Origin: Candidatus Bathyarchaeota archaeon
GTDB taxonomy: Archaea; Thermoproteota; Bathyarchaeia; 40CM-2-53-6
Reading direction: 5' to 3'
Assembly: GCA_963833125.1 (NCBI GenBank)
Contig: CAWHWX010000016.1
Coordinates: 1-64,000, forward strand
DNA length: 64,000 bases
Below, piece by piece: positions 2,799 through 34,348 of the stretch. A program made the translations under genes and the position numbers. The notes below the pieces were generated by a model. It ran no database searches. It had not been told where the DNA came from and saw only the letters and a list, made by a program, of their open reading frames with translations. The first letter of the stretch is position 1. The number at the start of each line of letters is the position of its first letter.

Positions 2799-3808
2799 GC
2801 GTACCGCGCCCCAACCTACTGGCCACCTCCCTGCGGAACTTCTTTGGCGACTATCTACCCCGCCTCCGTGGCGTCAGTCCCCATACGATTCAGAGCTATC
2901 GTGACAGCCTTGTCCTGCTTCTGCGTTTCTTGGCTACCCAGGGGCACCGTGGGGTCGCCGATTTGGATCTTTCGGATCTCAACCCTACGGCAATGGTCGC
3001 CTTTCTGGCGCATTTGGAGCAGGAACGTAAGGTATGCATAGCAACGCGCAACGTCCGTTTGGCGGCTATTCACGCTTTCTTCCGCTTCTTCGCCGCCCAG
3101 CACCCCGATCAACTCGAAATGGCCCAGCGCATTTTGGGCATTCCCTTCAAACGTACTCCAAAACGCGGCGTGGAGTACCTCGAGGAGGAGGAAATCGAAG
3201 CCGTCCTTTCGGCCATCGACCGCTCCACTCGGGACGGACGACGCGATTACGTTTTGTTGGCAACCATGTTCAACTCAGGTGGCCGGGTCCAAGAAATTAT
3301 CGATCTTCGAGTTTGCGACCTTCAGTTGACTGCACCTTTTCAACTCCGACTTTTCGGTAAGGGTAGGAAGGAACGCTTCTGCCCTCTTTGGCCGCAAACG
3401 GCTCGGTTGTTGCGCGACTTTGCAAAGGAGCGACAGTTGGACATCCGGTCCGACACTCGCGTCTTCCTCAACCACCGCCAGCAGCCTTTAACGCGGTTCG
3501 GCGTCCGTTATATCCTGGCCAAGCATCTTCTCCGCGCGCGCCGCCAAGCGCCCAACCTCGCAAGGAAGAAACTTCATCCTCACAGCATCCGCCACAGCAA
3601 CGCCGTAGCCCTACTCAAGTCGGGCGTAGATCTTTCCACTATCAGTCAGTGGCTCGGACATGCCAGCCTAAATACCACCAACCACTATGCGACTGTCGAT
3701 TTGGAAATGAAGCGGCAGGCGATCGCACGCGTCCATCAAGTTCCGCGCAAGGGTGCGATTGCATGGCGGAAGAACCGTACGATTTTGGCGTGGCTGGAAG
3801 CGCTATAA
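2795..3808 (+). CDS. Tyrosine recombinase, RitC-like (337 aa)
   Basis: GGRVQE, GKGRKER, HSIRHS, WLGHASLNTTNHY; ATGA overlap with RitB. Confidence 0.92.
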   Translation: MSVPRPNLLATSLRNFFGDYLPRLRGVSPHTIQSYRDSLVLLLRFLATQGHRGVADLDLSDLNPTAMVAFLAHLEQERKVCIATRNVRLAAIHAFFRFFAAQHPDQLEMAQRILGIPFKRTPKRGVEYLEEEEIEAVLSAIDRSTRDGRRDYVLLATMFNSGGRVQEIIDLRVCDLQLTAPFQLRLFGKGRKERFCPLWPQTARLLRDFAKERQLDIRSDTRVFLNHRQQPLTRFGVRYILAKHLLRARRQAPNLARKKLHPHSIRHSNAVALLKSGVDLSTISQWLGHASLNTTNHYATVDLEMKRQAIARVHQVPRKGAIAWRKNRTILAWLEAL

Positions 3809-5057: not shown

Positions 5058-6087
5058 TCACTTCAGGATTGCAGTCTCGCCAGTTGTAAACACCAATGTG
5101 AGTTCGTTCGAAAACGACTCCTTCTCGTGTATTGTGATCGTCCCGTCCTCGTCTTCCTCTTCGCTTTTGTCAACGACTTTCACGGACTGCCAGAAAGAAA
5201 GGTGGCGGTTTTCCTTGGAGCCAAAATTTCCATTGAGGAGCCCGGCACAAGCTAAAATTCCCACGTGCCCGGCATGCAATGGGGTTAATGGCCGCCCGAT
5301 AATAGACGACTGCTCAGCGAACAAGATGCGCCCGGCCTGTCGGTACGCCGCCGAGCGCGGCAACAGATCCTCGATTTCATCGAGCGGCAGGCCGCGATGC
5401 ACAAGTTGCACCGGGCCACTTTCCGGCACACAGATATTGCGTTTCTGGCTCCGAAGGAAGAACGGGGAGCCGCGCCGCGTTTCTCGCTAAATTCGCAAAC
5501 TGAAGACGCGCGCGTGTGATGTCGCTGTCCTGAAGCCGTTCCCTCTCCCGCCGACTGCGGCGCACCGCAAACACGACCACCTGCTTATAGCGGACGCACT
5601 CCGTTTCGCTAAGACGGTACAAGCGAGTGTCACGGAACTGCACAGCCAGAGTGTGACTACACTCGGCGATGCGTTCACCGGGAATCACCAGCACCAGGAT
5701 GGCGCCCGGTTTGAGCCAGCGATAGATGTGAGCCAGGAAGACCGGCTCCACGCGTTCGCTTCGGCTCTCGCCAATGCTCCAGTCGTACGGCGGGTTGAGA
5801 TACAGCAGCGAAAAGGATTCGGCCGGGCAGTGCACGTCCAGGCAGCTTCCTTGCACAATCTGGTCCGCGACCCCTGATGCTTGCGCGGCGCGAAAAGAGT
5901 CCAACTCAATCCCATACCGTTGCACTGGCGCGTCCGCCGTAATGGCAGCAAGCGCCACGCTGTCGCCAATGCATGGATCCAAGGCGGCGCATGGTACTGC
6001 GGGGAACTGCAAGAATTTTCGGATACGCTGGGCCTCGGCTGATGGTAATGGGTAGAAGCCGAGCCGGCTTTTGCCCTGGAATCTCAA
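5058..6087 (-). CDS. DUF6094-type SAM-dependent DNA methyltransferase (frameshift ~5435)
   Basis: LGFYPLP, LDPCIGDS, YGIELD and LNPPY motifs in 5377-6087; C-terminal PLTPLHAGH..AGLLNG in 5058-5429. Confidence 0.78.
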
Positions 6088-6180
6088 GCAGGTGCTCCTC
6101 TCTCAGGAAGACTCGTCTGGAATTTTTTTGGCAGGTGCAAACCCCACCGACGTAAGTAAATGAAAACAGAATAGATAGCC

Positions 6181-8295: not shown

Positions 8296-8673
8296 TCATG
8301 CCCTGCTCCGAACACTCTTTGAACGCCTCCGGAGTCGTGTCCATAGTGAAGCGTCAATGGGCAGGCGACTGCTTACACCGGTTGAGAGGTTGATGAAACC
8401 GCCGTGGTAACAAACCATGCCATACCGGAACAACCGGGCCAGCAACGCCAGAGCGTGTTGCGCGAGGGTCGAGTTTACAAACGGTTCCTGCCGCTCCAAA
8501 GCCTCAGCCGCGCTGCAGCTCGGCTCGCCGTCGTCGTCGAGACTCGAATCCACTATCTCAGGAAAGAGCTCCGCCGCAGACCTCAGACGGAGTTTCGCCC
8601 TGCGGTTCCGCTCGTTGAGCGGTTCCCCAAGCACGAACTGTCCACTGTCGGCATTGTTGCCGATGTCGAGCCA
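8296..8673 (-). pseudogene. C-terminal half of the resident PRTRC ThiF/E1 gene, split by insertion
   Basis: Reads WLDIGNNADSGQFVLGEP...PSCSAAEALERQ...; in frame with 18145-18582. Confidence 0.92.
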
Positions 8674-8838
8674 TTATCTCAGCGGTTTTTCTTGTATGTT
8701 TGATTTGAATGACAGAGGTTTTCCAGGATCTGACCTTCCTTGAATCCAGACTTATATTCACCTACCCGGACTCATTCATTTCCTGGCTTTCGAGCGCAGT
8801 CTGCTAACCGACCGAGTTAGAGTTCGTCTCATGGCTGT

Positions 8839-9930
8839 ATGCACGTGTTCTTCGACTCGAACAGGCGACCGTTTCTTCTGGACTCCCAGATGAAGTGGGA
8901 AGTCGAGCCGAACGCCTTTTTGACAAGGATGAGCTTGGTCAGCGGCAAGACCAGTTCGCCACGAACCTGGAGGAGTTACGCCTATCAGATGGCGGATTGG
9001 TTGAGCTTCAGCGAGCGGACCAATTTAGATTGGAGGCACGCGAGCGAACTTAACCTGGCGACCTACCGGAATATTCTTGCAGCAGAGCCGAGTCCACAGA
9101 CCGCCCGGCCGCTGAAGCGAAGCTCCATCAATCACAAATTGACCGTGATCTGCCAATTCTACAAGTTCGCCCACCGCAAAGGCTGGGTCGATGGACTTCC
9201 CTTCGAACTGGAAGCAGCTCGAATTCCTCACAATGTCCAGGCCAATCTTTCCCTACAGACCCAGCCGATTTCTCGCTTGTGGCTTAGGAACAGCTTGAAG
9301 CTTCGGGATCTTCGGGAGGAATTATCAATTCCATCTCGACAAGAGGTGCGGCGATTCATAAAAAGCTTCCGGGCTTGGCGGGATCAACTGATAGCCGAGA
9401 TCATGTGGCTGACGGGGATGCGGTCTGCCGAGGTGTGCTCGCTGCCACTGAATGCACTTCCCGAAGCCCCGGGCTCATTGGAAAAGGAAACCGTAGCCAT
9501 CAAGATCACAGGTAAGGGACAGAAGCAGAGAGCGGTTCTCTTTCCGATCCGATTGCTTCGATCGATTGAGAAATACATTCACATGGAGCGTTGGCGTCGG
9601 GTGAAGAGCAATTGGGAAACCCCTGGCAGTGTGTTTGTGGGACGAACGGGAAAACCGCTCCGCACGTCCGCGATCAATCGTGTGTTCTCGACCAACTACA
9701 AACGGTCGGGCTTGCACATCTGGCCTCACTTGCTGCGCCACTGTTATGCCGTCGAGCGATTGGCTTACCTCGAAGATATTGGTGGCCCTAATCCGCTAAA
9801 GGTGGTGCAGATGGAACTGGGGCACGCGCACATGGCAACGACGGAAAAATATCTTCATCTCACCGAGCGAATGCGAAGCGAGATGATCGAAACCCACAAC
9901 AGCTTCGTGGACCGGCTGCTGGAAGGTTGA
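8839..9930 (+). CDS. Tyrosine recombinase, TnpA/IntA-like (363 aa)
   Basis: TGMRSAE, GKGQKQR, HLLRHCYA, LGHAHMATTEKY. Confidence 0.92.
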   Translation: MHVFFDSNRRPFLLDSQMKWEVEPNAFLTRMSLVSGKTSSPRTWRSYAYQMADWLSFSERTNLDWRHASELNLATYRNILAAEPSPQTARPLKRSSINHKLTVICQFYKFAHRKGWVDGLPFELEAARIPHNVQANLSLQTQPISRLWLRNSLKLRDLREELSIPSRQEVRRFIKSFRAWRDQLIAEIMWLTGMRSAEVCSLPLNALPEAPGSLEKETVAIKITGKGQKQRAVLFPIRLLRSIEKYIHMERWRRVKSNWETPGSVFVGRTGKPLRTSAINRVFSTNYKRSGLHIWPHLLRHCYAVERLAYLEDIGGPNPLKVVQMELGHAHMATTEKYLHLTERMRSEMIETHNSFVDRLLEG

Positions 9931-9966
9931 GCTACGCGAAAAGACGGCACTGGACGGCGATGGGCC

Positions 9967-11580
9967 TTGGCGGGTGAGGCGACGCTTCGGAGACACAATC
10001 TTGCCGAGTTGCGAGTCGAAAGTGCACCTCTGGTGCAGACCTTCGAGCCGCCGGGCAGGCGACCCTTCTCCGTGAATCTGACGTTTTTGTCTTCTCGTCC
10101 CGCTCTTGCCCATGTGTTGGCCAATAGCTTCTGGATGATCGGCCAACCTGGACTGCGTTGGGCGACCGCACGCCGAACAACGGGCACTCTGAGACTGTTC
10201 CACCGGTTTCTCAATTATCGCTCCCAAAGCCAGCCGGACGTGCAAGCTGCCAAAGATCTCACCACCGACTTGTTAAAGGAGTTTGCGGTCTGGCTGATCG
10301 CCGAACCCGGTCTGAAACGGAAGTCGGCCGCCGGCCTTTTTGCGGCGTGCTGCCGTTTCTTGCGCAGGTCGCGCCGGCTGTACCCCGAGGAGTTCAATGC
10401 CCTCCTCTCTACGCCGAGAAACCTCTTCGCGGGAGCAGATCATGATCGCACGGAATCGAGGGCCCTCTCACGGTCTGACTTCCAAAAACTCCTGGCTGCA
10501 GCGGGGGCCGACATCCGGCGAATCCAAGAGAACTACAAACAGGGAGAGGTCCCCACCAGCGCGCAACACCTGATCCCGTTCATGGTCATCATTGGGGCGC
10601 GCACGGGCATCAATGCGGAAGCGTTGTGTGGCCTCGACAGAGATTGTCTAAGGCCGCATGAGTTCGACGAAACCCTCTTCTACTGCGTGTGGGACAAAGC
10701 GCGAGCCGGTAAACAGCAAAAGCAGCTGCATCGTGCCGATCGTCGGAATCAGATGGGGGTGGTGGAACTGATTCAGTTCTTACGTCAGTTTACGGAGCCG
10801 CTGAGATCGGAGGCGGGTCCACTGGGATCGAAGAAACTCTTTCTCTACTTCAGCCGAGGCTCCAACCATATTCAATACAGGCTTGTCTCGCTGGGGATGC
10901 AAGCCCACACGGTCTCGAGGTACTTCCGCGAGTTTAGAAAGCGTCATAGGTTGCCCCGATGCACCCTGGCGAGCATCCGGCCAACGGCGGCGACGCAGCT
11001 TTATCTGGAAACCGGCGGAAATTTACGCAAAGTTCAGCAGTTTCTTCAACACATGGAGCTTCGCACGACGGTGAAGTATCTGCTCAACAGCATTACTGCG
11101 CCCTTCAACGCCCGCGTGATCCAGAGAGCGCAAGAACGCATGATTGAGCGGATCACCGTCATCCCCGAGAAGCGCGCTCAGGGCGTGGAACGACTGGACC
11201 TGCCGAAGGCGCAGGTGCTGAAGATTGTGACCGGACAATTCGACACCGGCTGTGGCACATGCCGCGATCCGTATGATTCGCCGCAGCCGGGCGAAGAGAA
11301 AGGATGCGCATGCACATCCTTCCATGCCTGCTTCAGTTGCCCGAATGGTCTTTGGTTCCTGGAGGACTTACCCCAAGTCATCGCCACACGCGATCGGCTT
11401 GTGTCATTGAAAAAAGAGATGAGGTCGGAGGAATGGGAGACGGTTTATGGAGCCAGTGTGCGGATCATCGAGGAGCAGATCATCGGCGCGTTTCGACCCG
11501 AACAGATCAAGGGCGCCGAAGTGAAAGCAAGGGTCCAGCAACGCCAACCGCTCTTGGTGGCCAAGGGGGTGCTGGCATGA
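9967..11580 (+). CDS. Tyrosine-recombinase-fold protein with degenerate HxxR and Cys-rich C-terminus (~537 aa)
   Basis: RTGIN, ASIR in place of HxxR, LQH...TTVKY; C-terminal CRDP..CTSFHACFSCPN. Start codon uncertain. Confidence 0.8.
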   Translation: MAGEATLRRHNLAELRVESAPLVQTFEPPGRRPFSVNLTFLSSRPALAHVLANSFWMIGQPGLRWATARRTTGTLRLFHRFLNYRSQSQPDVQAAKDLTTDLLKEFAVWLIAEPGLKRKSAAGLFAACCRFLRRSRRLYPEEFNALLSTPRNLFAGADHDRTESRALSRSDFQKLLAAAGADIRRIQENYKQGEVPTSAQHLIPFMVIIGARTGINAEALCGLDRDCLRPHEFDETLFYCVWDKARAGKQQKQLHRADRRNQMGVVELIQFLRQFTEPLRSEAGPLGSKKLFLYFSRGSNHIQYRLVSLGMQAHTVSRYFREFRKRHRLPRCTLASIRPTAATQLYLETGGNLRKVQQFLQHMELRTTVKYLLNSITAPFNARVIQRAQERMIERITVIPEKRAQGVERLDLPKAQVLKIVTGQFDTGCGTCRDPYDSPQPGEEKGCACTSFHACFSCPNGLWFLEDLPQVIATRDRLVSLKKEMRSEEWETVYGASVRIIEEQIIGAFRPEQIKGAEVKARVQQRQPLLVAKGVLA

Positions 11581-13451
11581 ACCAGCAACTGGCGCTCGCT
11601 TTGAGACGCGGTGCAGTCGAAACGCAGCTCACCGGTTCCCATGGCGACAACCCGCAGCTTTCCGCAGTCTCGCGATTCCATGACGACGTATGGGATTTCT
11701 CGCACGAAAATCAGAACCCAGCCAACGACAGGTCAATGAAGCGGATACGTTGGGCATTTAGGACACCGGACGGCGGCCTCTTCACCGACCCGCGATTCCG
11801 GAGTCTATTTACCGCGTTGAAACAGTTCATCTACGCCCTGCACTGGCATCCTCTCGACTCGGTGCCGTTTGCCGCAGGCACGTTGCCGGGCGCGTTCGGG
11901 CACGCGAAGCGATTCGTCGTCCATCTCTTGGGATATCCGTCTCCAATCCTTCGTTTTAAGGATGTGCTGCCCCACCACTGTGAGGATTACGTCGCGGAGT
12001 TGTTGGGTTCCCGTCTCAGTGTGGGCTACCAATACCACTGCGTGAGTATCCTTGAGAAGTTGGCGTTATACAGTCCCGCGATGCAGGAAGGGTTGGTGAT
12101 CGACCCGTTGAAAGGCGAGGCGGCCGGTGAGGTGGTTGGCTGGAGTAAGGCTTCGTTGCTCGAAGGCCAGACGGCAATTATTCCTGACGAAATCCTCGGG
12201 CCGCTTGTGCAGGGGGCGCTCGAATACGTGGATCGGTTTGCCGGTTACCTATTGGAAGCCAGCGACGCGGTCGAGGACATTCGTAAACAATGGCCTGACA
12301 GACGCGCCAGGATTGAGTACCGTTCGAGACGCTGGTTGCACGAACATCTTCCATCGGCCTACGGCCTCTCCGGAAGCAAGTTCGAGAATGGCTTGTCAGG
12401 CGTGTGCGAATTGAACAGGGAGCTGTGTTATCTCCAGAATGCCTGCTTTGTGCTGATCGCGTTCGCGACCGGCATGCGACTCAGTGAAATCCTGTCGCTC
12501 CAAGTAGGCTGTTGCGAAATTGAAAAGGAATCTGGTCAAGTGGACTTGGTTTGGCTGCGCAGCCGAGTGTTCAAAATGCAAGGAGTGCCCGAGGGTCGCA
12601 AAGCGAGGTGGTTGGGCGGACCCCTCTGCGCCCGTGCCGTGCGAGTCATGGAGCGGTTGACTCGACGGACGCGGCGGGAGACCAAAGTCCGATCTCTGTG
12701 GGTACCTATACCGTCTTTCGTTCGCAGGCCTCGCCCGGCTGGACCTCTCATCGGCGACACTATCAGGCGCCGGCTGGAAGCGTTCGCGACCATGCTCGTA
12801 GTCAAAGATGCTCAGGGCCGCCCCTTCCACCTCCACCCGCACATGTTTCGTCGGACCTTTGCCCGGCATGTCGTGAGGCACGATACCACGAACCTTCTGG
12901 CCTTAAAGGAGCACTTCAAGCACGTCTCCATTTCGATGACAGATTATTACGTCGGGAGCGACTTGGAACTGTGGGCGCTGATGGTGGAGGAGGAAGAGAA
13001 GTTGCTCTTTGAGAGTTTCGACAAAGCCCTGCGGGCCGAGCGCATGGCGGGCCCCGGCGGCGCCCGGCTAAAGAGAAAGATTGATGAGGCGATTGCCGAC
13101 GGCCGCCTGCCTGGGGAATTTCGAGGAGAGGCAGGTGCCCATCTGCGCAAGGACATGATCCGCGATCTGGTGGAGTCGGGGCAGCGCGTCTATCCTTGTG
13201 CGGCGTCGAATTACTGCTGGTTCCGCCCGGAATCGGCGCTCTGCACCCAGGGGAATCAGCCGCTGCTCAAACGCTGCAACCCCGGGGCCTGCACGAACTC
13301 GGTCATCACGCCGGAGCACAAGCCCCATTGGGAAAAGGTGCAACGCGACTGCGTGGAGCTGATGGAGTTGAAGCCACAGGCGGAGCCTTACCAGAAGGCG
13401 CTCCGGGATATCCACGCGGTCAGCAGCAAAATCCTGCGGGATCTGACATGA
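11577..13451 (+). CDS. Large tyrosine recombinase, TnpB/IntB-like (624 aa)
   Basis: TGMRLSE, HMFRRTFA, FKHVSISMTDYY; Cys-rich C-terminus. Start set at ATG 11577 (ATGA overlap). Confidence 0.9.
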   Translation: MNQQLALALRRGAVETQLTGSHGDNPQLSAVSRFHDDVWDFSHENQNPANDRSMKRIRWAFRTPDGGLFTDPRFRSLFTALKQFIYALHWHPLDSVPFAAGTLPGAFGHAKRFVVHLLGYPSPILRFKDVLPHHCEDYVAELLGSRLSVGYQYHCVSILEKLALYSPAMQEGLVIDPLKGEAAGEVVGWSKASLLEGQTAIIPDEILGPLVQGALEYVDRFAGYLLEASDAVEDIRKQWPDRRARIEYRSRRWLHEHLPSAYGLSGSKFENGLSGVCELNRELCYLQNACFVLIAFATGMRLSEILSLQVGCCEIEKESGQVDLVWLRSRVFKMQGVPEGRKARWLGGPLCARAVRVMERLTRRTRRETKVRSLWVPIPSFVRRPRPAGPLIGDTIRRRLEAFATMLVVKDAQGRPFHLHPHMFRRTFARHVVRHDTTNLLALKEHFKHVSISMTDYYVGSDLELWALMVEEEEKLLFESFDKALRAERMAGPGGARLKRKIDEAIADGRLPGEFRGEAGAHLRKDMIRDLVESGQRVYPCAASNYCWFRPESALCTQGNQPLLKRCNPGACTNSVITPEHKPHWEKVQRDCVELMELKPQAEPYQKALRDIHAVSSKILRDLT

Positions 13452-13969
13452 AGGCCTCGGCAAAGAAATTGGCCGGCCTGCGTCGTTACCATGCGGACCG
13501 TCCGGTCAAAACCCGTTTGAAACTGCTCGAAGCGCTCGATCGGATGGAGAGTGGTCACACGGTCGTGGTTGCGCCGGAATTTAAGTGGAGTAAGACGACG
13601 CTGGCACGAGAGGCAGGGATCAACATCAATACCCTCGTCCGGAAGCTTCCGAGCGGTGAATGGGCGTTCCCGGAGATCAACGACCGTTTCGAGGAGCTGA
13701 GAAACAAACGCCGACCGGTGGTGATTGGTTCCGATGCAAGAGAAGAGAAGAACGCCGAGCTGCGAATTGAAGTCGAAAGGTTGCGAGAGCAAAACCGGCT
13801 GCTGGCCCTGGAAATCAATCGCATCGGCCAGCAGATACTGGAGGAGAGGGAAAGAGCCGACCGGATGGCGGTTTATGAGCGGCAGAATGTCTCACTCCGT
13901 GAGGAGATCAGCCGGATACACGGCGGCGGACGCACTCCGTTGAAGGTGGTGGCCAGGCATGAAGGTTAG
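13448..13969 (+). CDS. TnpC-like HTH + coiled-coil accessory protein (173 aa)
   Basis: SKTTLAREAGININTL HTH-like segment, long coiled coil; ATGA overlap. Confidence 0.7.
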   Translation: MKASAKKLAGLRRYHADRPVKTRLKLLEALDRMESGHTVVVAPEFKWSKTTLAREAGININTLVRKLPSGEWAFPEINDRFEELRNKRRPVVIGSDAREEKNAELRIEVERLREQNRLLALEINRIGQQILEERERADRMAVYERQNVSLREEISRIHGGGRTPLKVVARHEG

Positions 13970-14393
13970 CCGATTATCCGGTCGCGAGCGGGGCGAAGAA
14001 AATCTGGCGCAGGTTCGCCGCTATCTTTCCGACCTGAAGACGACCGGCCAATCGCTGCCGTTCGAAGATGGCCGCCCGAACATCACCGCCATTGCCGAAG
14101 CTTCCGGCGTGCTCCGGAATGTCTTTTACACCAATGCCGGTGTGAAGCGCCTACTGGCTGAGTTTATCGGTGACTTTGGCGAATGCAACCAGGAGCCGAC
14201 CGGCACGGCCCGCGCCCAGCGACAACTCGACATCAAGGAACGCCGCATTCTCCAGCTTGAGCAGCAACTGGCGAGCATGAAGGCGGAGACCGAGGAACTG
14301 CGCCAGCGGCTGGCGGCAGCCGAGCAAAAGCTGACTCGTTACCGAGTGATTGAGGAGGAAGTTCTCCAAACGGGCCGGCGGGTGATCCCGTGA
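13959..14393 (+). CDS. Second TnpC-like HTH + coiled-coil protein (144 aa)
   Basis: NITAIAEASGVLRNVFY HTH-like segment followed by coiled coil. Confidence 0.7.
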   Translation: MKVSRLSGRERGEENLAQVRRYLSDLKTTGQSLPFEDGRPNITAIAEASGVLRNVFYTNAGVKRLLAEFIGDFGECNQEPTGTARAQRQLDIKERRILQLEQQLASMKAETEELRQRLAAAEQKLTRYRVIEEEVLQTGRRVIP

Positions 14394-16498
14394 GAATCTC
14401 GGCGGTGGCGACTATCACGACCGTCTATCCTGGCCCTCGCGGCGGCGCAATCTTTTCGGGGCGCGATACTGCGGGCAAGCATCTGCGCTTCGTTGCCGGC
14501 TACCATCATATCTTTCGGACTCCCGTGGTGGGAGAGACTTGGTCACTGACAGGTGAAGTCCGGCGGCACCCGCGATACGGAGACCAGGTCCATGTCGAAC
14601 AGGCTTCCCTGATCCAACCCCGCGGCCAGCTCATCATCGACTTCCTTTCCAAGCATCCGGCCTTTGCCGGTTTGGGCATTGGAAAAGCGAAGGCGACGCG
14701 ATTGTGGAAGAACTTTGGATCAGATCTGTATGAAGTGCTCAGCCAAGGGGATCTCGAAAAACTCACCTACGTGCTTTCGGAGGGCAGCGCACAGAGGCTC
14801 GTGGAGGCCTGGCAGACGGTCTCCGCCGAGGCTGACATCATCTCGTTTCTCGATACGCACGGCTTCGAGGCTCGCCTGGCTGGCAAGGTTCGTAAGATTT
14901 GGCGTGGGGATGCGCTGACCAAATTGAAGGAGAATCCATACCGGATGCTGGCCTTCGCAGGTTGGGAGAAAGTGGACCGAATGGCGCACTCTCTGGGTGT
15001 GACTCACGACGATCCGCGTCGGCAGGTCGCTGCCGTGGAAGCCTGCCTGTATAAACGGCTGGATGCCAAGCACACGCAAACGCCCCCGGCGATGCTCTTG
15101 GACGGCGTGTGCGCCGCGATGGGAATGTGCAGCACCGGCGTGGCGCGCGCGGCCCTGGACCGAGCGCTCGGCGAGCACGCGATCGTCGCCACTGGGAATG
15201 GTTACCAGCCTCTGGGCGCCGCCGTGATGGAAAAGACGATCACGAGCTATCTTCACGAGCTGCTGGCTGGCGCTCCCGGACCGGAACGGAACCTGTTCTC
15301 GCGCAAGCTCTCCGAGATCGTTGTCGAAGCGATAGCCAGCTTTGAGAAAGATGCGGGACTGCGCCTGAACATCGAGCAGCGACGGGGCGTGGAGATGGCA
15401 CTCCATCACCCGCTCAGTGTTCTTACGGGCGGAGCTGGAACTGGCAAGACGACCGTGCTTCAGGTCATCCACCGGGTCGCGGAGCAAGTCACTGTGCCGG
15501 TTTTGCAGATGGCTCTCAGCGGGCGCGCGGCCCAACGCCTCCGTGAGGCGACCGGGCGCCCGGCATCAACCATCGCCGCCTTTCTGCTTGCGGCCGAGCA
15601 AGGGAGCGTCAATCCGGAAAGCGAGCCGCTGGTCATCATCGATGAGTCCTCAATGCTCGACGTGCCTCTGATGTACAGCATTGTCCGGGCTCTGCCGACC
15701 CACGCTCGTCTACTCCTGGTTGGCGATCCGTACCAACTGCCGCCGATCGGCTTCGGTCTCGTCTTTCAGGTACTCGTCGCCAGCCCGAACATCCCGAAGA
15801 TCGAGCTTGTTGAGGTGCATCGGCAGACGCAATCGACCGGCATCCCCCAGATCGCACGCGACATCCGGCACGGCATTGTGCCGTCCCTGCTGCCATTCGC
15901 CGGTCTCTCCGCCGGCGTGAGCTTTATCAAGGCCAACGACGATGATGTTATGGATTACATCCTCGCTGTCCTCACCGACTGGCGTGGCTGTGAAGATACA
16001 CAAGCCCTCGGAGTGACCAAGCGAGGGACCAGCGGGACAAGGAGCATCAATGCCAGGCTGCACGCGACAACTTCTGCCACGAAGCCAAAGGTGGAAGGGT
16101 GGGGTTTCGCCGAGGGCGATCCCATCATTTATCTTGTGAACGATTACCAGAAAGAGTTGTGGAACGGCTCGCTGGGCAGGATCGAGAGCATCCTGAACTC
16201 GAACGGAAGACGCGCTCTGCTGTGCTCTCTCGATGGCACGCGGCACGAAATCCCGGAGGAAGACTTTCAGCGTATCGATCTGGCTTACGCGATCACCGTT
16301 CACAAAGCGCAGGGCAGCCAGTTCAAGCGAGTGCTCGTCCCCATCACCAGGAATCGGCTCTTGGACCGCACTCTCATCTACACGGCGTTGACCCGCGGGA
16401 TGGAACAGGTCGTCTTCATTGGAGACTGGGACGGGTTCGACGCTGCCGTCACTGCGCCGCCGCGTTCCCACGAGCGGCAGGTCGGCTTCTCCATCTGA
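14390..16498 (+). CDS. RecD2-like SF1B helicase (702 aa)
   Basis: GIGKAKA HhH, ENPY, GGAGTGKT, IIDESSM, GDPYQLPPIG, VHRQ, ITVHKAQGSQ, YTALTR. Confidence 0.92.
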   Translation: MRISAVATITTVYPGPRGGAIFSGRDTAGKHLRFVAGYHHIFRTPVVGETWSLTGEVRRHPRYGDQVHVEQASLIQPRGQLIIDFLSKHPAFAGLGIGKAKATRLWKNFGSDLYEVLSQGDLEKLTYVLSEGSAQRLVEAWQTVSAEADIISFLDTHGFEARLAGKVRKIWRGDALTKLKENPYRMLAFAGWEKVDRMAHSLGVTHDDPRRQVAAVEACLYKRLDAKHTQTPPAMLLDGVCAAMGMCSTGVARAALDRALGEHAIVATGNGYQPLGAAVMEKTITSYLHELLAGAPGPERNLFSRKLSEIVVEAIASFEKDAGLRLNIEQRRGVEMALHHPLSVLTGGAGTGKTTVLQVIHRVAEQVTVPVLQMALSGRAAQRLREATGRPASTIAAFLLAAEQGSVNPESEPLVIIDESSMLDVPLMYSIVRALPTHARLLLVGDPYQLPPIGFGLVFQVLVASPNIPKIELVEVHRQTQSTGIPQIARDIRHGIVPSLLPFAGLSAGVSFIKANDDDVMDYILAVLTDWRGCEDTQALGVTKRGTSGTRSINARLHATTSATKPKVEGWGFAEGDPIIYLVNDYQKELWNGSLGRIESILNSNGRRALLCSLDGTRHEIPEEDFQRIDLAYAITVHKAQGSQFKRVLVPITRNRLLDRTLIYTALTRGMEQVVFIGDWDGFDAAVTAPPRSHERQVGFSI

Positions 16499-16822
16499 AA
16501 GCCGGCTCTCTCTTGTTCTGACTTCCAGAGAGTTTTTTTGAGAGCCATCTTGGCATCAATGCGACAAATCCTGGGGGTCTTGGGGGCAAGCCCCCAAGCA
16601 AGGGAACTTCAGAAGCCCGAGTTGACGCCATCGGCGATCTGGCCTTTCACTCGCGCTTCCCTTAGACTGGAGACGGCCTGGGCGGAGGGTAGGGCAATGC
16701 TGGGAAGCAACCCGAGCGCCGGCCCAGGGGCCGAGATGGGGAGGGGCAGAGTACGGCTCTGCCCCTGCTGTCTGCTCGCCAAGTCGAATCCTCAGTAACC
16801 TAGCCTTGGCTCAGTCCAGTGG

Positions 16823-17608
16823 TTAAGCTGCGTTTCGTTGCCCCCGTTTCCTGACCCGACGCCACAGCAAGGGATCAACCGCAAGCGGTATGGCCCGCGA
16901 AGTCGCGACGTCCACGAAGGCGCCATGATAGGTGATTTCGCCGTATCGGAACAGCCGAGCGAGCAATGCAAGAGCGTGCTGCGCCAGCACGGAGTTGACG
17001 AAACAGTGTTGTCTGTCGAGCGCCTCAATCGCGCTGCAGCTCGGTTGGCCGTCGTTGTCGAGTGCCGCGTCGATAATCTCGGGGAACAGCTCAGCGGCTG
17101 TCCGCAGGCGGGTTCTCGACCTGCGGTTGACATTGTTCAGCGGCTCGCCCAGAACAAACTGGCCGCTCGACTCGCGGTTGCCGATGTCGATTGCATAATG
17201 GATCGCACTGTTGCCTGTGGTCTGACGTTCAATGACGGCCCGTGCGGCGCGCGTATCGACGCAACCAATGACGATGTGCATCGACCGGAGTTGATGATTC
17301 TCCGTCAGGCTCTTCGGCACCGCGTCCCAATCGAGCCCCCAGAAGATATTCAGCCTGTTAACCAGCACGATCGCCTTATTTAATCCCAGCTCTGCCCGAC
17401 TGAAAGGCTGGCGCACGCAATTGACGGGCGAGATCGTGTCCCCGTCCATCACGGTCACACGTAAGCCATAAGGGTGCCCCTGCGCGAGCATCGCCTGGTG
17501 GAGGTAGGGCAATCCCCCGATGATCGAACTCCCCGTCCCGCCGCATCCGACGACCAGCACCCGCACTTCGCGGCGCAACAATTCTCCGTGCAATCTATGT
17601 GTCTCCAT
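16823..17608 (-). CDS. Intact PRTRC ThiF/E1-family protein carried by the element (261 aa)
   Basis: VVGCGGTGS, DGD, NCVRQ, GCVD, GQFVLG, PSCS; collinear with the split resident copy. Confidence 0.92.
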   Translation of the reverse strand: METHRLHGELLRREVRVLVVGCGGTGSSIIGGLPYLHQAMLAQGHPYGLRVTVMDGDTISPVNCVRQPFSRAELGLNKAIVLVNRLNIFWGLDWDAVPKSLTENHQLRSMHIVIGCVDTRAARAVIERQTTGNSAIHYAIDIGNRESSGQFVLGEPLNNVNRRSRTRLRTAAELFPEIIDAALDNDGQPSCSAIEALDRQHCFVNSVLAQHALALLARLFRYGEITYHGAFVDVATSRAIPLAVDPLLWRRVRKRGQRNAA

Positions 17609-17761
17609 TCCATGCTCCACCGTGCTTCGACCAAACCCGCGAAAACGCCACCCGGGATCGATCTGCGTTTAGATCGACTGCCGCCAAAAGCAGTTCGCGA
17701 AGCGGCTGCGTTCTCCTCCGCCAGCGCTCTTCGCACTCTCTTGCGAACGAGACACGCTATT

Positions 17762-17986
17762 ATGGAATATGTGAAGCATCTGTCCCTTGAACTACTGGAG
17801 CGGTATGTCATGGAGGATATCTCCAGTCGTGACCGGCAACGGGTCGAACGGCACGTGATGCGCTGCCCGGAGTGCCTTGACCGGTTACACGCCGACGTCG
17901 GATGGGTGCTTGGAGTGCGCTCAATGGACAGGATCAGGAAAAAGCTTATAAACCCACCTGGAAAATCCCGCGCGAAGAATGAGTGA
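17762..17986 (+). CDS. Small zf-HC2 (anti-sigma-like zinc-binding) protein (74 aa)
   Basis: HLSLELLERYV...VERHVMRCPEC matches H-x3-C-x2-C. Confidence 0.65.
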   Translation: MEYVKHLSLELLERYVMEDISSRDRQRVERHVMRCPECLDRLHADVGWVLGVRSMDRIRKKLINPPGKSRAKNE

Positions 17987-18139
17987 GTGGGTGTGTGTCG
18001 GCCAACCTTGGTTCGCCAAAGTTCTCGTACGCGTGGCCGCGCTCCAACATGGACATATAGATTTTTCTTATGCAGATGAGCCAAAGGCTGCAATCGTGCG
18101 GGTCTGTATCATACACATACCTGCCATCGCCAATATAAC

Positions 18140-18582
18140 AGCCAGTACGAAACTGTGCTCCACTTGCTGACTGCATCGCGAATTGCAGCCCTTGCAGCGC
18201 GCGTGTCGACGCACCCCACAACGATGTGAGCACGGAGGTCGTCACCAGAGTAGCTGCGCGAGATGAAGGCTCCCGACCTCAAGTGAAGCGGGACAGCCTC
18301 CCACTTCATTCCCCAAAAAAGGTTGAGCCGGTTGACCAAAACAATCGCCTTGTTGAGGCCCACTTCCGATCGCGCAAATGGTTGGCGAACGCAGTTGGTG
18401 GGCGTGATCAAATCGCCGTCCAAGATAGTCACGTGCAGTCCGCCGGGGTGACCACGAGCCACGAGGGATTGATGCAGGTACGGCAGCCCCGCGACAAAGG
18501 CGCTACCGGTTCCTCCACAACCCACGACCAGCACACGAACCTGCCGTTCGAGAAGATCCGGATGAATACGATGAGTCTCCAT
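18140..18582 (-). pseudogene. N-terminal half of the resident PRTRC ThiF/E1 gene
   Basis: METHRIH...VVGCGGTGS...GCVD...SYWL, then element sequence; AAGGAG RBS. Confidence 0.92.
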
Positions 18583-18592
18583 GCGCGGCTCC

Positions 18593-19306
18593 TTAGCGGT
18601 CATCTCCGTGCGACACGAACTCCTGCAAGGCCTCCCCAGCATCGGTCAAGTGCCGCACCGGGAACCGCTTCCTGCCGGCAAGACATCTCCAAAGCCCGAT
18701 GAAACCTTCGGCGTGTTTGGTAAGGCGGACCGCGCCAGCGGCGTGGGTGAAGGCGGATTGAAAATATGAGTCTTCCCACTGTGAAATGGACGGAATTTCG
18801 GAACTCTCTGGCGCGCGCATTGTGCCCTGGCAGACCAAGCCTCGACTGTCCGTATTCCAGTAGGGAGCAGTTTTCAGGGGCGTCTCTGGGCTTGGCCGTG
18901 AGTTCGTTGCGAGAGCTCGTACGAAGAGATCTCGGCCCGCAACCTTGAAGACCAAAGGCGGATGAGGGAAGAGAAGGCCGTTGAGCTTCCGCGCTTCGTC
19001 GTCGGTTCCGCCGAAGAACATTACTTGCTGCCGTGGCCGCGTCCACCACACCACCAGCTCCGGGGTGCGCGCGAGGATGTTATCCGGAAAGACCTCCGGG
19101 TCGAGTTGAGTTCCGAGGCCACGAGCGAGCTTCCGCACGAACGCAGTGCTTACCGGTTCGCCCGGAGCGAGATAGGGACATCCATTCTGGTCCTGCTTTA
19201 CTTGGTGCAGGCTGGCGAATGCCCCCTCACCGCCGCCTCGATAAACGAGCACGGCTTCACTCAGCTTGAATTCGCAGTTCGCGCCAATGTTGACGTATGC
19301 TCGCAT
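18593..19306 (-). CDS. PRTRC system protein B (prokaryotic E2-like)
   Basis: VVWWT, PHPPLVF, APYWN...VCQG, WEDSYFQSAFTH; position between F and ThiF. Confidence 0.85.
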   Translation of the reverse strand: MRAYVNIGANCEFKLSEAVLVYRGGGEGAFASLHQVKQDQNGCPYLAPGEPVSTAFVRKLARGLGTQLDPEVFPDNILARTPELVVWWTRPRQQVMFFGGTDDEARKLNGLLFPHPPLVFKVAGRDLFVRALATNSRPSPETPLKTAPYWNTDSRGLVCQGTMRAPESSEIPSISQWEDSYFQSAFTHAAGAVRLTKHAEGFIGLWRCLAGRKRFPVRHLTDAGEALQEFVSHGDDR

Positions 19307-19311
19307 GGCTG

Positions 19312-20409
19312 TCACCTCGAAATGATCCACTTATCGTTGCCCTGCATCAGGTCAACTAGGCGAGTCGCAGCGGCCAATGTTTCGCAGGCCGCTCCGAATA
19401 CTTTGAAAGCACTGCGGACGCTTTCCGGTTCGCTGGGATCAAAAGGAATAATGAGGTTGGGTTCCGGCGTCACTTCCATCATTCCCTGGGCCTCTTCGTC
19501 AAAGCAGCCGGCAATCGCGTCGGACTCGGCGAACAGTGCCAGCAGGGTGGGGAGCGGAGGGTTGCAATCCGAAAGCAACGCCCCGATGTCTTCATTGATG
19601 TCCGGCCGTTCTGCATCGGCGGACAGTTGATCCAAACGGACTGCGCCCTCGATTAGCCGCTTTGCGAGTGGGTCGCGAATTTCGTTTGTAATTCGAAGAA
19701 GCTCGTTTCCCTCTAGTGCCTCCTGCTTCATGCACGGCGGAATGGAGCCGGCCACGTCTGGAAATTCGTACTGGCCAGCATCGGGCTCCTGGGCGACCCA
19801 CTCCCGCAAAGTCTCAGCTCGATCTTCAGCATCGCGAAAATCGTAGACCCGGCTCCAGCGATTCAAAGCTCCAACGAAGAGATGGAAAAATGTTGCTGGC
19901 AGCCGAGGGTGGACGCTCTCAAGCAACTGCAACGTTGGCCCAAGAACCACACAGCCACAACTTGACTCCGATGGCTCGACCGTCAAGAACAATTGATCGG
20001 ACTTGGCCTCGTCGGGCTCTGCCCACTCGCAGGGTGAGTTGCTGATCGCAGCGGCCAACAAGAAGCGACGGCGGATGGCCGGCCCGCCGTGCGCGTCGAT
20101 CCAGCGCTCAAGTGTGATCCTGATGTAAGACGTTGGATCGCACTCCGCCTTCTTCCAATCTTCAGAGACAGCAATGTCCAGCGTCAGGAGACATTCGGCC
20201 AGCGCAACCGCCAACCGGTCGTCCGCTATCAGGCGCTGTGTTATCGGAACGCCCGCCAGCCGGGGAAGCGAGAGAGTTCCTGCAGGTGCTATCAACTGAC
20301 CGGAGGAAGCCATCCGGGCGGGGCGTCGAGTGGAGTGCGGTTGTAAGTACGAGCGCTCGCCTCGACTGCGGCGGCGAAGAGGGCGGCGGCACGTTGCAGT
20401 TCCGGGCAT
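19312..20409 (-). CDS. PRTRC system protein F
   Basis: LSLPRL start region, LESVHPRL motif, size and synteny. Start uncertain; overlaps the upstream small ORF. Confidence 0.7.
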   Translation of the reverse strand: MPGTATCRRPLRRRSRGERSYLQPHSTRRPARMASSGQLIAPAGTLSLPRLAGVPITQRLIADDRLAVALAECLLTLDIAVSEDWKKAECDPTSYIRITLERWIDAHGGPAIRRRFLLAAAISNSPCEWAEPDEAKSDQLFLTVEPSESSCGCVVLGPTLQLLESVHPRLPATFFHLFVGALNRWSRVYDFRDAEDRAETLREWVAQEPDAGQYEFPDVAGSIPPCMKQEALEGNELLRITNEIRDPLAKRLIEGAVRLDQLSADAERPDINEDIGALLSDCNPPLPTLLALFAESDAIAGCFDEEAQGMMEVTPEPNLIIPFDPSEPESVRSAFKVFGAACETLAAATRLVDLMQGNDKWIISR

Positions 20410-21849: not shown

Positions 21850-24321
21850 ATGCTCCAGATCGGCATTGATGGATTCATTTTCTCGCAAACCTCCGAGTTG
21901 GTGCGTCCAGTAAACGAAAGGTTACTCCATTCGTGTGCATATTCTTATCGCCGCTGTCTAGAAGACCTAGCCTTCGCTTTGGTTTACTCCGACAAAGTTT
22001 TAAAGTACGGGTCCCTCCGTCCGCCACTCGATTCAAACAAATACAGCGTACCAGATCTTCTGAATGCAATTAACGAAGCGGATGCTTGTATTTTGGGCGA
22101 CTTTCCTGTCGATAAGGATATCCATGGTGATCAACTCATTGCTGAACGCAGCCACAGCGAGGGCATCATCCGCGATCTACGGCTGCTTGAAGAATCTGTA
22201 AGGTCCGAATCTGACCAGGCACGGTTCAAGGAGTGGCTGGCGCGCGAGTCGGACATGTATTTCGGTTGGGACGAGTCCGTGTTTGAGGAGAAGAGGGACC
22301 CTGCCGAGTACCTATACGGCACCACCGTGCCCTATCACATGAACCGAAAAATCCAAGATTCCATTGCCGAGGATGTCATCAAGATCCTCGACTCAGCGCT
22401 GCAAAATGCCCCAAAGAACCTACCCGACCGCTACTCTGACGGAGCACGGCGGGAGTTCGTCACTCGCAATATGCTCACACTTGTGACGATTATGAGAGCA
22501 TACGAGCTTTCGGCATTTCGTAATGGCTTTTGGCGCATGCCGCATGTGACCCGGGTGATCATAGGCTTTCGGGATCTCAGGAAGCGAATTGGTCGGCAAC
22601 TCGACCTTCGGCGCATTATCGTTCGCTATACGCTTCATCAGGCATTGGCGGAGACGCCCAGCGACTCGCGCGAATCGGTTATTAAGAACCTTTGCGAGCT
22701 GAGGAATGAGAAATATCCTAAAGCTATCCGTGAGTTGCTAAGCACCGCAGACCTCTGTGTGCTGAACGCGGATGAGGCTCAGGAGGAAGCTGCAGGAACT
22801 CTCATCGCAGAGATCAATCGTTCTTCCATCCCGGTGCCAGAACCTGACCGGGACACTTTCGTGATCAAGAGGCAGTCTACCCTTCGGGAGCTTGGCGCTG
22901 TTAAATGGGCGACGCACGAAGATGAGCTTTTCCGTGTTTTTCCGGAGCTGAAGACGGATTACGACAACAAATATACCTTCGTATCGCCATCGAAACCCGA
23001 GAGCGATGCGGATGTTGACCGCCGTTTCGCAAATATGGCCATTGAGGAGGCGCGGAAGAGCGTTCCCGAGGATGACAGACCCCATCCGAAAGTGGGAGCG
23101 GTTGTCGTCAGGAACGGCATCGTCCTGAGCAAGGCTCACCGTGGAGAAAGCCCAAAGTCTCACGCGGAATATATCGCCTTAGAAGGCAAGCTGCCTGATG
23201 ATCTGGTCGCAGGGGCTACCGTTTACACCACACTTGAACCCTGCACTAGTAGAAAGCATCCAAAGATTCCCTGTGCTCAGCGGCTAGTGGAACGAAAAGT
23301 GGCCCGTGTTGTCATTGGGATGCTTGATCCGAATCCTGGCATTCGAGGACTGGGGGAGCAGCTACTAAGTGAAGCTGGCATCGAAACCCAACTGTTCCCG
23401 CGGGACCTGAGAGCGCAGGTTGAAGAAATGAACCGAGAGTTCATCAGGGCGCAGAAAATTAAACAACCGCGTTCCCTCCCGAACGGCAGTCCAGACAATG
23501 CAATAACAGTTGCCGCACGAGCACTAATCGACGGCCGCGACGAGGCTCATCTGAACATTGTACGCGGCGTTCGTCGGGCCGCGGAAGAACTCCTCAGCCC
23601 CGAGGGGCACCGATCTTGCCCAATTATTTTGAAAATACGCGAAATCTTCTACACAACAGAGTTTGACGGTGTCTTTGTCGGTGGGGAGTTGCAGAACCCG
23701 GCTGACATGAGTTACCAAGTCACCGACTGGGGTCTTTCCATCCCTGCCCTGAACGCATCTTTGAAACCGTACTTGACACCGTTCGGGACCGGGCGCTACA
23801 ACGGCCCAAGTTGGTGGCGCATGCCTCTCGACCTTCCGGGCAGGAAGATAACGACCGGCTCATTATTCTTTTCTTTCTCCGATGACCCAAGTTGGCGGGA
23901 ACGTATCTCCCGGGAGGAACCCCTGCACGCAAAAATCAGCGCCCACATATTCCCCGCCGGGCTGAGCGAGCAGCTTGTTGAAATTTGCAAGCTCAACACG
24001 CTGCGCAACAGAAATCAGTCGGCTAACCCCGTTGCCGGATTGTCCGAGCGGGAAACAAAGATACTTTCGTGCGCGGCGCAGGGCGACGGAAGCATCTTCG
24101 TCAGGGGATCCGAGCAGATCGCCGACCGATTCTTCGTACAAGCAGGGCCGTGTTCTCTACCTTATGAAAGCGGGGCTTTCCCGAAGGCTGATTTCGAACC
24201 CTGGATCGAAGCCGTGGACACCTTGATCGCTCGTGGGCTCATAAGACTCGAAAGTAAGACTCGTGACTCAGAGATTTACGTCCTCGCCCCTTTGGCCCGA
24301 GAAGTTATAAGAAGCACTTAA
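21850..24321 (+). CDS. Multidomain protein with central RibD-type Zn deaminase domain (823 aa)
   Basis: PKVGAVVV, HAE, YTTLEPC-x9-C, VVIGMLDPNP; flanking regions unrecognised; no reductase domain. Confidence 0.85.
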   Translation: MLQIGIDGFIFSQTSELVRPVNERLLHSCAYSYRRCLEDLAFALVYSDKVLKYGSLRPPLDSNKYSVPDLLNAINEADACILGDFPVDKDIHGDQLIAERSHSEGIIRDLRLLEESVRSESDQARFKEWLARESDMYFGWDESVFEEKRDPAEYLYGTTVPYHMNRKIQDSIAEDVIKILDSALQNAPKNLPDRYSDGARREFVTRNMLTLVTIMRAYELSAFRNGFWRMPHVTRVIIGFRDLRKRIGRQLDLRRIIVRYTLHQALAETPSDSRESVIKNLCELRNEKYPKAIRELLSTADLCVLNADEAQEEAAGTLIAEINRSSIPVPEPDRDTFVIKRQSTLRELGAVKWATHEDELFRVFPELKTDYDNKYTFVSPSKPESDADVDRRFANMAIEEARKSVPEDDRPHPKVGAVVVRNGIVLSKAHRGESPKSHAEYIALEGKLPDDLVAGATVYTTLEPCTSRKHPKIPCAQRLVERKVARVVIGMLDPNPGIRGLGEQLLSEAGIETQLFPRDLRAQVEEMNREFIRAQKIKQPRSLPNGSPDNAITVAARALIDGRDEAHLNIVRGVRRAAEELLSPEGHRSCPIILKIREIFYTTEFDGVFVGGELQNPADMSYQVTDWGLSIPALNASLKPYLTPFGTGRYNGPSWWRMPLDLPGRKITTGSLFFSFSDDPSWRERISREEPLHAKISAHIFPAGLSEQLVEICKLNTLRNRNQSANPVAGLSERETKILSCAAQGDGSIFVRGSEQIADRFFVQAGPCSLPYESGAFPKADFEPWIEAVDTLIARGLIRLESKTRDSEIYVLAPLAREVIRST

Positions 24322-33025: not shown

Positions 33026-33289
33026 TCACGCGGTCGGCTGTAATGTCTCTAATTCCCTCACTCGATCCAGCTCAGCCATGGCATCTGCGGGAGTGAGGCC
33101 GTCGGGGTCGGAGCCGCGCTGGTAGCACCGGCCTTCGGAATCCAGCCGCAGATACTGACGCGTGCGGATGTGCTTGTAGAACTCAACCCCTGCCTCGCGC
33201 CACATCCACATAAACTCGTGACACCCATCGGTCCCGACGAGTAGTTCAAGCGGTTTCCAGTTCGGATTTTCAAATGTCTTCTCAGCCAT
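33026..33289 (-). CDS. Hypothetical protein (87 aa)
   Basis: GAGGAG RBS; PNWKPLE..FMWM..YKHIRTRQYL; overlaps the primase stop. Confidence 0.65.
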   Translation of the reverse strand: MAEKTFENPNWKPLELLVGTDGCHEFMWMWREAGVEFYKHIRTRQYLRLDSEGRCYQRGSDPDGLTPADAMAELDRVRELETLQPTA

Positions 33290-34268: not shown

Positions 34269-34313
34269 CATTTCCTCCCGATAGTCTGGTGGTCGCCACT
34301 TCTCCATAGTGGC

Positions 34314-34348
34314 TGTGGTAAAACGAGAAATATTTTCTGTCAAACGGC
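34314..34348 (-). promoter_or_regulatory. Promoter with shared GCCGTTTGACAG motif upstream of the primase
   Basis: TTGACA, 17 nt, TACCAC on the minus strand. Confidence 0.5.

Follow-up and report, generated by a model that had tools for sequence, protein, structure and literature searches.

In the window, a stretch of 64,000 nucleotides from the start of contig CAWHWX010000016.1 of a Candidatus Bathyarchaeota archaeon (GCA_963833125.1), a minus-strand thiF gene of the PRTRC type was found to be cut in two by an insert of 9,465 bp (8674-18138). It is best explained as an integrative element with site-specific insertion, similar to SE, Tn554 and GInt, and carries a complete second PRTRC thiF. 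In the probable explanation, an integrative element has split the thiF of a conjugative-type island, its cargo thiF replaces the lost E1 protein, and related clades of elements pair target and cargo in the same way.

The 5′ part of the resident thiF, read from 18582 to 18145, terminates in GTT TCG TAC, and the 3′ part, read from 8673 to 8296, opens with TGG CTC GAC ATC GGC AAC. Both pieces are still intact and, when joined through a single copy of a 6-bp spacer, gave an open frame of 271 amino acids reading ...SYWLDIGNN..., the insertion being in the middle of the gene (codon 147 of 271), where the YWLD motif is cut between its Y and D codons. A 6-bp spacer flanks each inverted end of the element, and the two spacers are unequal, reading in thiF sense TGGCTC at attL (8668-8673) and TGGCTG at attR (18139-18144). 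The upstream junction in the same sense is ...GTT TCG TAC-TGGCTG-TTATATTGGCG... and the downstream junction is ...CGCTGAGATAA-TGGCTC-GAC ATC GGC AAC. The frame of the truncated gene enters the element and reaches a stop after 11 codons. A preliminary description of this DNA had placed the split at TAC-TGG-CT and had predicted 271 amino acids for the rejoined gene, which agreed with the matches of both pieces to the profile TIGR03736 (PRTRC system ThiF; curated cut-off, 144.75 bits) and with the open rejoined frame. The two fragment ranges given there were in error, as both include the repeated TGGCT, and joining them duplicates TGGC and breaks the frame. The junction itself was correctly located but is better described as 6-bp spacers adjoining inverted ends.

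The cargo thiF is situated 530 bp inside the right end of the element, directly downstream of the truncated gene and in the same orientation. It reads TAT-GCA-ATC-GAC (17186-17197), i.e. HYAIDIGN, where the resident gene is cut. A complete paralog reading YAID in this orientation had already been described, and its score of 275 bits is in agreement with this. The resident gene adjoins other PRTRC genes, the cargo copy is alone within the element, and the two are 62% identical in protein and 61% in DNA. A sequence of 14 nt, TCGACATCGGCAAC, occurs twice in the window (8656-8669 and 17177-17190), where chance expectation is none. The identical stretch that had been described after the insertion site therefore exists but is not singular; a 15-nt identical run occurs at another conserved motif, PSCSA, and with 61% identity overall the stretch was rejected as a special signal. 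A weak promoter-like site was seen at 17786-17759, and no terminator-like site between the truncated gene and the cargo thiF. Divergent from the cargo thiF is a small open reading frame (ORF) for an anti-sigma-like zinc finger (zf-HC2), a possible regulator, which is kept in the related locus L008 (80% DNA identity over 1,304 nt).

Relatives of the element were mapped by tblastn and by an end-motif scan of 107 sequences. A large protein collection held 101 homologs of the large recombinase IntB, mostly 58-87% identical, and 106 related loci were gathered, 26 from genomes and 80 of 123 from metagenomes. The named records were mostly Acidobacteriota; the contigs are for the most part short pieces from metagenomes, and several of the rows represent copies of a single element. 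At least one recognisable end was found in 57 of the 107 sequences. Eight sequences were inserted in the W-L codons of thiF (site A, TAC-TGGCTN-GAY), the W-L-site relatives having the junctions ...TAC-TGGCTN-TTATAT... and ...GATAA-TGGCTN-GAY. Another 17 used R-Q codons about 60 residues downstream in the same gene (site B, GAA-CGGCAG-GAG), with junction spacers that include CGTCAG, AGGCAG and CGACAG; locus L094 also belongs to this site, its 5-nt spacer being clipped by the contig start. The xPPY motif of a DUF6094 methylase (AAY-CCNCCN-TAY GAY) was the target in 19 sequences and the YPD-RP-Y/F motif of a ResIII/Helicase_C helicase in 10, while two sequences showed other spacers. In a tree of IntB (78 rows) four clades were resolved, and every row of known target agreed with its clade; the target labels required 22 changes compared with a mean of 43.3 after shuffling, and none of 200 shuffles was as low. 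Site-specific targeting, which the preliminary description had suggested, was thus confirmed by relatives at the same W-L codons and extended by three further sites in other clades. The mapping of homologs that it had proposed showed insertion sites to be clade-specific and the cargo mostly to match the target; the R-Q site, the other target genes and the precedents in print for elements that carry their target gene had no place in its account. A tblastn search of a plasmid collection with IntB gave 253 records, of which none reached 60% identity and the best had about 29%, and hence no close relatives in that collection.

Three elements of the methylase clade (L062, L067 and L068) were located in xPPY codons of unrelated methylase genes, that of L067/L068 being a type ISP/N6_Mtase gene reading IIGNPPYNV. 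Since these elements landed in unrelated methylases, recognition seems to be centred on a short motif-coding stretch.

Both ends were mapped in 27 elements, 26 of which had a usable flank. A complete paralog of the flanking gene was present inside 18 of the 26: a thiF in both thiF clades, a DUF6094 methylase in the methylase clade and a ResIII/Helicase_C helicase in L050/L010. In the examples checked, which came from each of the four classes, cargo and target had the same orientation. Compensation by a whole cargo gene rather than by a duplicated gene end, as proposed earlier, would fit these paralogs and is well supported by the comparison.

The cargo copies are unlikely to be recent acquisitions from their targets. 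The 25 cargo thiFs formed two cargo-only clades of 14 rows (SH-aLRT support 97) and 11 rows (98), and the resident and uninterrupted thiFs fell outside these clades, scattered. Pairwise ratios of nonsynonymous to synonymous substitution rates ranged from 0.081 to 0.165 (28 pairs of 8 copies). The cargo thiF thus appears to be a long-held, element-borne lineage under purifying selection. Such a history bears on the idea that the target copy is a functionless passenger, acquired passively by imprecise excision or recombination. GInts are reported to acquire their cargo from diverse DNA in the neighbourhood (Bardaji et al. 2017, PMC5385486), and in most relatives the cargo region does lie between the core genes and the right end. 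The cargo copies are, however, complete rather than adjacent fragments, are mostly 51-66% identical to their own flanks (46-83% overall), form cargo-only clades and show purifying selection. Moreover, the copy is kept in sub-families lacking the DUF6262-helicase module, in which thiF directly follows orfX, and in others with thiF at the left end, upstream of intA. A passive passenger is therefore very improbable. Integration guided by homology to the cargo copy was also considered and rejected, given exact junctions at the inverted ends, the absence of hybrid genes and a DNA identity of about 61%.

Several observations indicate that elements of this family have moved. One methylase-type element of 10,117 bp was 99.93-100% identical in L011 and L054-L057 and 96.7% in L053, and the flanks of this type represent about four contexts that are 72-92% identical to one another, L011 and L055 sharing one. 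Near-identical elements in such diverged flanks point to very recent spread. The attL and attR spacers were unequal in many loci, and L043, L044 and L047 occupy the same site with different attR spacers. In the metagenome contigs of L008, L055, L057, L094 and L015, an element end lies 0-12 nt from the start or end of the contig, that of L008 being a 10,011-nt contig for a 10,000-bp element; such breaks are expected if several contexts, or a circle, are present in a sample.

A wrong join of two thiF-bearing molecules through a repeat would also produce two thiFs on one contig. The window comes from a metagenome bin with 7% contamination, and several related contigs break exactly at element ends. 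On the other hand, the two thiF pieces fit to the base in one open frame, and the junction structure recurs in dozens of contigs of different data sets and in an isolate genome. Owing to this recurrence in many independent contigs, the architecture is not regarded as an assembly accident, and an artefact can be considered extremely improbable.

Upstream of the split thiF, matches were obtained to PRTRC system proteins B, E (62.2 bits) and F (weak at 26.9 bits, below the cut-off). The window also encodes a protein resembling type IV coupling proteins (T4CP), a VirB4/TraG-like ATPase, an SSB and a primase of the archaeo-eukaryotic primase (AEP) type. Its G+C content is 0.578 with atypical tetranucleotide use, compared with 0.50 in the rest of the 520-kb contig and in the genome. 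Conjugation-type genes and deviating composition together place the split gene on a foreign island of conjugative type, and the conjugative nature of the host element suggested in the preliminary description was borne out in this form. A search of 401 genomes of the window's own phylum gave PRTRC ThiF in 2, the window genome included (E<=1e-20), which likewise argues that the island is foreign there. The relatives of the element are mostly titled Acidobacteriota. This points to a transfer of the island across phyla or to a chimeric join.

According to the proposed explanation, the recombinases would make 6-bp staggered exchanges, the attL spacer being the target's own sequence and the attR spacer a footprint brought along from the site occupied before, which is also the case in SE and Tn554. 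The cargo thiF would be expressed by read-through from the PRTRC operon or from a promoter of its own and would substitute for the lost E1 function of the PRTRC cassette, and the conjugative island would stay fit and carry the element along. Several points weigh against this explanation. Expression and activity of the cargo thiF are predictions, and the term compensation presupposes that the PRTRC cassette matters to the island. Eight of the 26 elements have no paralog of their flank. These are L013; L043, L044, L045 and L047, which represent one element type whose cargo contains an IS66-family transposase and a PRiA4_ORF3-like gene; and L062 and L067/L068, which do carry a DUF6094 methylase but are inserted in the xPPY motif of an unrelated one. 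The match of cargo and target amounts to only about four independent associations, one per clade. No circle and no empty-site joint was detected in the short, low-depth Logan contigs of four sequencing runs, none of which bridged a junction. Finally, a chimeric join at about 64-72 kb is conceivable. Parts of the window element were present in 20 sequencing runs, none of which held half of its words or more. The Logan joints listed, 8520/8630 and 16596/16674, derive from single contigs at 90% likeness, and the bins at 18238-19400 had zero cover in every run, which proves nothing.

The same arrangement could result from a take-over, in which the resident gene is destroyed by the element so that two diverged versions do not interfere, or so that the island comes to depend on the element's own allele (addiction or control); the cargo would then be the selected payload, which the insertion site serves. 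This was proposed for the recA island of Vibrio by Rapa et al. (PMC4405046), and SE-type elements are reported not to restore the empty site (PMC10214605), so that loss of the resident gene would be permanent. A take-over would also suit cargo thiFs that are old element-borne lineages rather than recent copies of the target, and a cargo accompanied by its own divergent zf-HC2 gene and promoter-like site. It makes the same sequence predictions as a rescue, and the present data therefore do not separate the two. Some relatives, however, persist after losing the cargo copy, and ThiF-type E1 proteins are not known to be poisoned by their paralogs. A take-over is accordingly rated as rather unlikely, and replacement of the lost E1 remains the favoured explanation.

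The altered W-L codons (GCA ATC) of the cargo thiF may keep the copy in the window from being a target itself. In the W-L clade, none of the six cargo types matched the 6-mer of its own target. The reading in site-A cargo is YAI, YWF, YIL or YML; in L038, YWL is kept, but the target of this element reads CACCTC/TACCTG. Conversely, site-B cargo in the shared cargo clade keeps TGGCTS in 4 of 4 lineages. This reciprocal pattern fits selection against self-targeting, Trp having no synonymous codon. Alignment of ThiF proteins, another step proposed in the preliminary description, showed YWLD to be the norm in residents of known context: resident or uninterrupted thiFs that were not chosen by site A read YWLD in 8 of 8 cases. 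Uninterrupted thiFs in PRTRC context were limited to L116 and L146, with L145 in addition but of no known context. Among the 120 nearest ThiF proteins, in which cargo and resident copies are not told apart, YWLD occurred in 61, W at this position in 69 and YAID in 21.

The view that the cargo copy cannot be hit is thus compatible with the W-L clade of thiF elements but does not hold in general. The NPPY motif is kept in 3 of 4 methylase cargo types (L065, L075 and L067; the L011 type reads NSPF), and helicase cargo retains YPDRPY. In addition, the cases are few and from related lineages, and in cargo clade 2 site A is changed whichever of the two element types carries the copy. As spacers vary within the L011 group (96.7-100% identical), immunity cannot result from changes of a single base. 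The R-Q site was uninformative in this respect; cargo never reads CGGCAG, but neither do most thiFs unselected on that site (CGGCAG in only 2 of 5). The helicase gene in which the cargo-less L043-type element (L043, L044 and L047) was found is 80-83% identical at the DNA level to that carried as cargo by L050, and L045 has different flanks. The L043 type may thus be nested in the motif-keeping cargo gene of another element; no outer element was found around it.

Taken with all its components, a broader proposal is tentative and rather less probable than not, namely that these elements form a diversified family that hitchhikes on conjugative elements by means of gene replacement. In such a family, recombinase specificity and cargo would have switched together at least three times, and each clade would land in the codons of a conserved motif (YWLD and ERQ of E1, xPPY of the methylase and YPDRP of the helicase, some presumably catalytic) and supply its own allele. 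Where no silent escape exists, the cargo would have changed its protein (YWLD to YAID, YIL, YML or YWF), and cargo alleles that keep the motif could themselves be hit, as in the L043 type. As no obvious likeness to the inverted repeats is seen in the arms of the four targets, recognition would not depend on resemblance of the target to the element's own ends, and a separable and evolvable targeting part would have to exist.

The element (Table 1) is bounded by 11-bp imperfect inverted repeats, TTATCTCAGCG at the left end (8674-8684) and CGCCAATATAA at the right end (18128-18138). In IntA, R195, H297-x-x-R300 and Y338 were conserved in 57 sequences. The middle protein also has a Cys-rich C-terminus, and its R212, R338, H362 and Y371 were conserved in at least 97% of 63 sequences; in IntB, R301, R425, H449 and Y458 were invariant in an alignment of 40 homologs. 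The small gene orfX was found in every relative whose contig includes the region downstream of intB. Its product gave no Pfam match above the cut-off, the nearest Atlas features were those of the KfrA-N, VPA1267 and DUF6262 clusters (0.91-0.94), and it is likely to be the counterpart of Srap, GinD and TnpC. The accessory DUF6262 gene travels with the helicase and is absent from relatives without it; a paralogous origin of orfX and the DUF6262 gene was rejected (BLASTP, E=30). No relaxase domain was found in the proteins of the element, the match of the RecD2-like gene to TraA-type relaxases being confined to their helicase part (TIGR02768, positions 355-720).

Table 1. Positions of the inserted element, its genes and the adjoining host genes in the window.
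Feature	Position	Strand	Evidence
Resident thiF, 3′ part, including attL spacer 8668-8673	8296-8673	-	TIGR03736 positions 137-244, 108.8 bits
Inserted element, 9,465 bp	8674-18138	+	End motifs, single copy in genome
intA, tyrosine recombinase, 363 aa	8839-9930	+	PF00589, 71 bits
Middle recombinase-fold gene, 537 aa, in Tfp/GinB position	9967-11580	+	PF00589, 27.4 bits, profile positions 104-166 only
intB, large tyrosine recombinase, 624 aa, Cys-rich C-terminus	11577-13451	+	PF00589, 53 bits
orfX, helix-turn-helix and coiled-coil protein, 173 aa	13448-13969	+	tblastn map; Atlas features
DUF6262/VPA1267-like small protein, accessory	13959-14393	+	PF19776, 31.4 bits
RecD2-like helicase of superfamily 1B (SF1B), 702 aa, accessory	14390-16498	+	TIGR01448, 420.6 bits (cut-off 500, not reached); AAA_30, 136 bits
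Complete cargo PRTRC thiF, 261 aa	16823-17608	-	TIGR03736, 275 bits, full profile 1-245
Small zf-HC2 (anti-sigma-like zinc finger) ORF, divergent from cargo thiF	17762-17986	+	PF13490, 28.2 bits (cut-off 22.2)
Resident thiF, 5′ part (M1 to ...SY), with attR spacer 18139-18144	18139-18582	-	TIGR03736 positions 1-138, 142.2 bits
PRTRC system protein B, host operon, directly upstream of split thiF	18593-19330	-	TIGR03737, 174.8 bits

The element was compared with known systems. Cargo that duplicates the target gene has two precedents, and the strategy of a replacement gene is therefore not new in principle; the trait is shared by the window element and 18 of the 26 relatives that had mapped ends and a usable flank. 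In Staphylococcus aureus, Tn552-II carries a tgl gene homologous to the gene it splits, and a rescue was suggested (Wan et al. 2025, PMC12486829). Tn552-II and the window element both combine tyrosine recombinases and a small protein with insertion in a coding sequence and a donor spacer at the right end. Tn552-II differs in having two recombinases (tnpA and tnpB) plus tnpC, a 7-bp att site and a Firmicute host. It is one element with one target family, and a family-wide match of recombinase clade, target and cargo is not reported in the text consulted. The Tn554 family in general has TnpA, TnpB and TnpC, whereas the window element has three recombinase-fold genes. For the island RME of Vibrio cholerae S24 (Rapa et al. 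2014, PMC4405046), excision as a circle, retargeting of the same site and a functional recA copy were shown. RME likewise lies in a gene at a specific site, with short inverted ends, recombinases at one end and a complete diverged copy (23% in RME) of the split gene at the other. Its target is, however, a chromosomal housekeeping gene; it is 33 kb long with 9-bp inverted repeats, occurs in both orientations and encodes one phage-type integrase and a XerS-like gene. An insert in thyA of Clostridium difficile is cited in the same report.

In gene order (intA-tfp-intB-srap), imperfect terminal inverted repeats and target specificity the element resembles the SEs (2023, PMC10214605), in which 6-bp spacers also occur and 6 bp of the left flank are copied to the right side of the next site. 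SEs were described only from Gammaproteobacteria. Their Tfp has no catalytic motif, whereas the middle protein in the window keeps the conserved R, R, H and Y; target-copy cargo is not mentioned in the accessible part of that report, and the window element has such cargo in addition to a DUF6262 and RecD2 module. The likeness to SEs is one of gene order and ends; the features seen in orfX are solely VPA1267/DUF6262-like. GInts (Bardaji et al. 2017, PMC5385486) have three integrase-like genes and a small protein, site-specific insertion, a variable cargo region, a short conserved 3′ end and inferred 6-nt staggered cuts, all as in the window element. They insert at gene ends (5′ of an ABC transporter gene or 3′ of ssb), leaving the product unaltered, whereas the insertion in the window is in mid-gene. 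GInts are also bordered by direct imperfect repeats of 10-17 nt instead of inverted terminal repeats with a 6-bp spacer, and their third protein is non-catalytic and lacks the first arginine, while IntB keeps the full set. GInt cargo is described as adaptive and unrelated to the target, with one case beside a duplicated nrd gene. Recombinase-in-trio (RIT) elements, as quoted in PMC10214605, have three recombinases of about 315-410 amino acids with a catalytic tyrosine; the window element is not of this type, its recombinase-fold proteins having 363, 537 and 624 amino acids and being followed by a conserved fourth small gene.

Firmicute integrative and mobilizable elements (IMEs) residing in Tn5252-type integrative and conjugative elements (ICEs) were found in Maff2, in a SNF2 helicase gene and at two sites in traG (Guedon et al. 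2017, PMC5704250). These 'hunters' of ICEs likewise use conserved genes of conjugative elements as landing sites, with two sites in one gene. They differ in having serine recombinases and in leaving the target disrupted, the proposed remedy being excision before transfer; they carry no replacement gene. In the literature searched, nothing was found on PRTRC thiF or Acidobacteriota in this role, nor on a family-wide match of target and cargo. As far as that literature extends, the element family, its targets on PRTRC islands, two sites in one thiF and the joint change of target and cargo from clade to clade are new.

Together with the recA island and the staphylococcal tgl transposon, the present family would turn isolated reports into a rule across a whole family. 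A mobile element may use the most conserved codons of another as its landing pad and pay with a replacement gene, which would be a recurring way of riding inside another mobile element without crippling it. The findings also argue for a value of the PRTRC E1, the DUF6094 methylase and the helicase to these conjugative islands, and E1 activity, as the preliminary description had supposed, may matter for the spread of the host element. The four related recombinase sets with mapped targets provide material for finding the basis of target choice in SE/Tn554-type recombination.

A cultured carrier makes bench tests possible. The genome titled Edaphobacter modestus DSM 18101 (G401; L021, L022 and L147) contains two R-Q-site elements, one of which has matching CGTCAG spacers at both junctions; these two junctions are located at opposite ends of the 6.12-Mb contig C1. 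In the phylum of this genome, PRTRC ThiF exceeded the cut-off in 3 of 401 genomes; together with the 2 of 401 in the window's phylum, this was not enough for a background set of thiF at the DNA level.

Further genes of the island were noted in the window. Its own DUF6094-type methylase gene (5061-6099, minus strand) is 56-67% identical to the cargo methylases of the relatives; although frameshifted near 5430-5467, it has retained LYLNPPYDW, the motif into which elements of the methylase clade insert. The contig start (1-156, minus strand) lies inside a homolog of the target helicase of the helicase clade (48% identity over 52 amino acids). With thiF, methylase and helicase homolog all present, the three families of target genes occur together on one island. 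A second trio of adjacent tyrosine recombinases (556-3808, plus strand; 415, 408 and 337 amino acids) with strong PF00589 matches, which resembles a classical recombinase-in-trio, is located between this methylase gene and the fragment of the helicase. Elsewhere, genes were seen for an 823-aa protein with a RibD/TadA-like deaminase domain (21850-24321, plus strand), a protein with an AEP-TOTE primase domain (33282-34343, minus strand) and a KAP-family NTPase (61193-63289, plus strand), all three of which are possible conflict-system genes.

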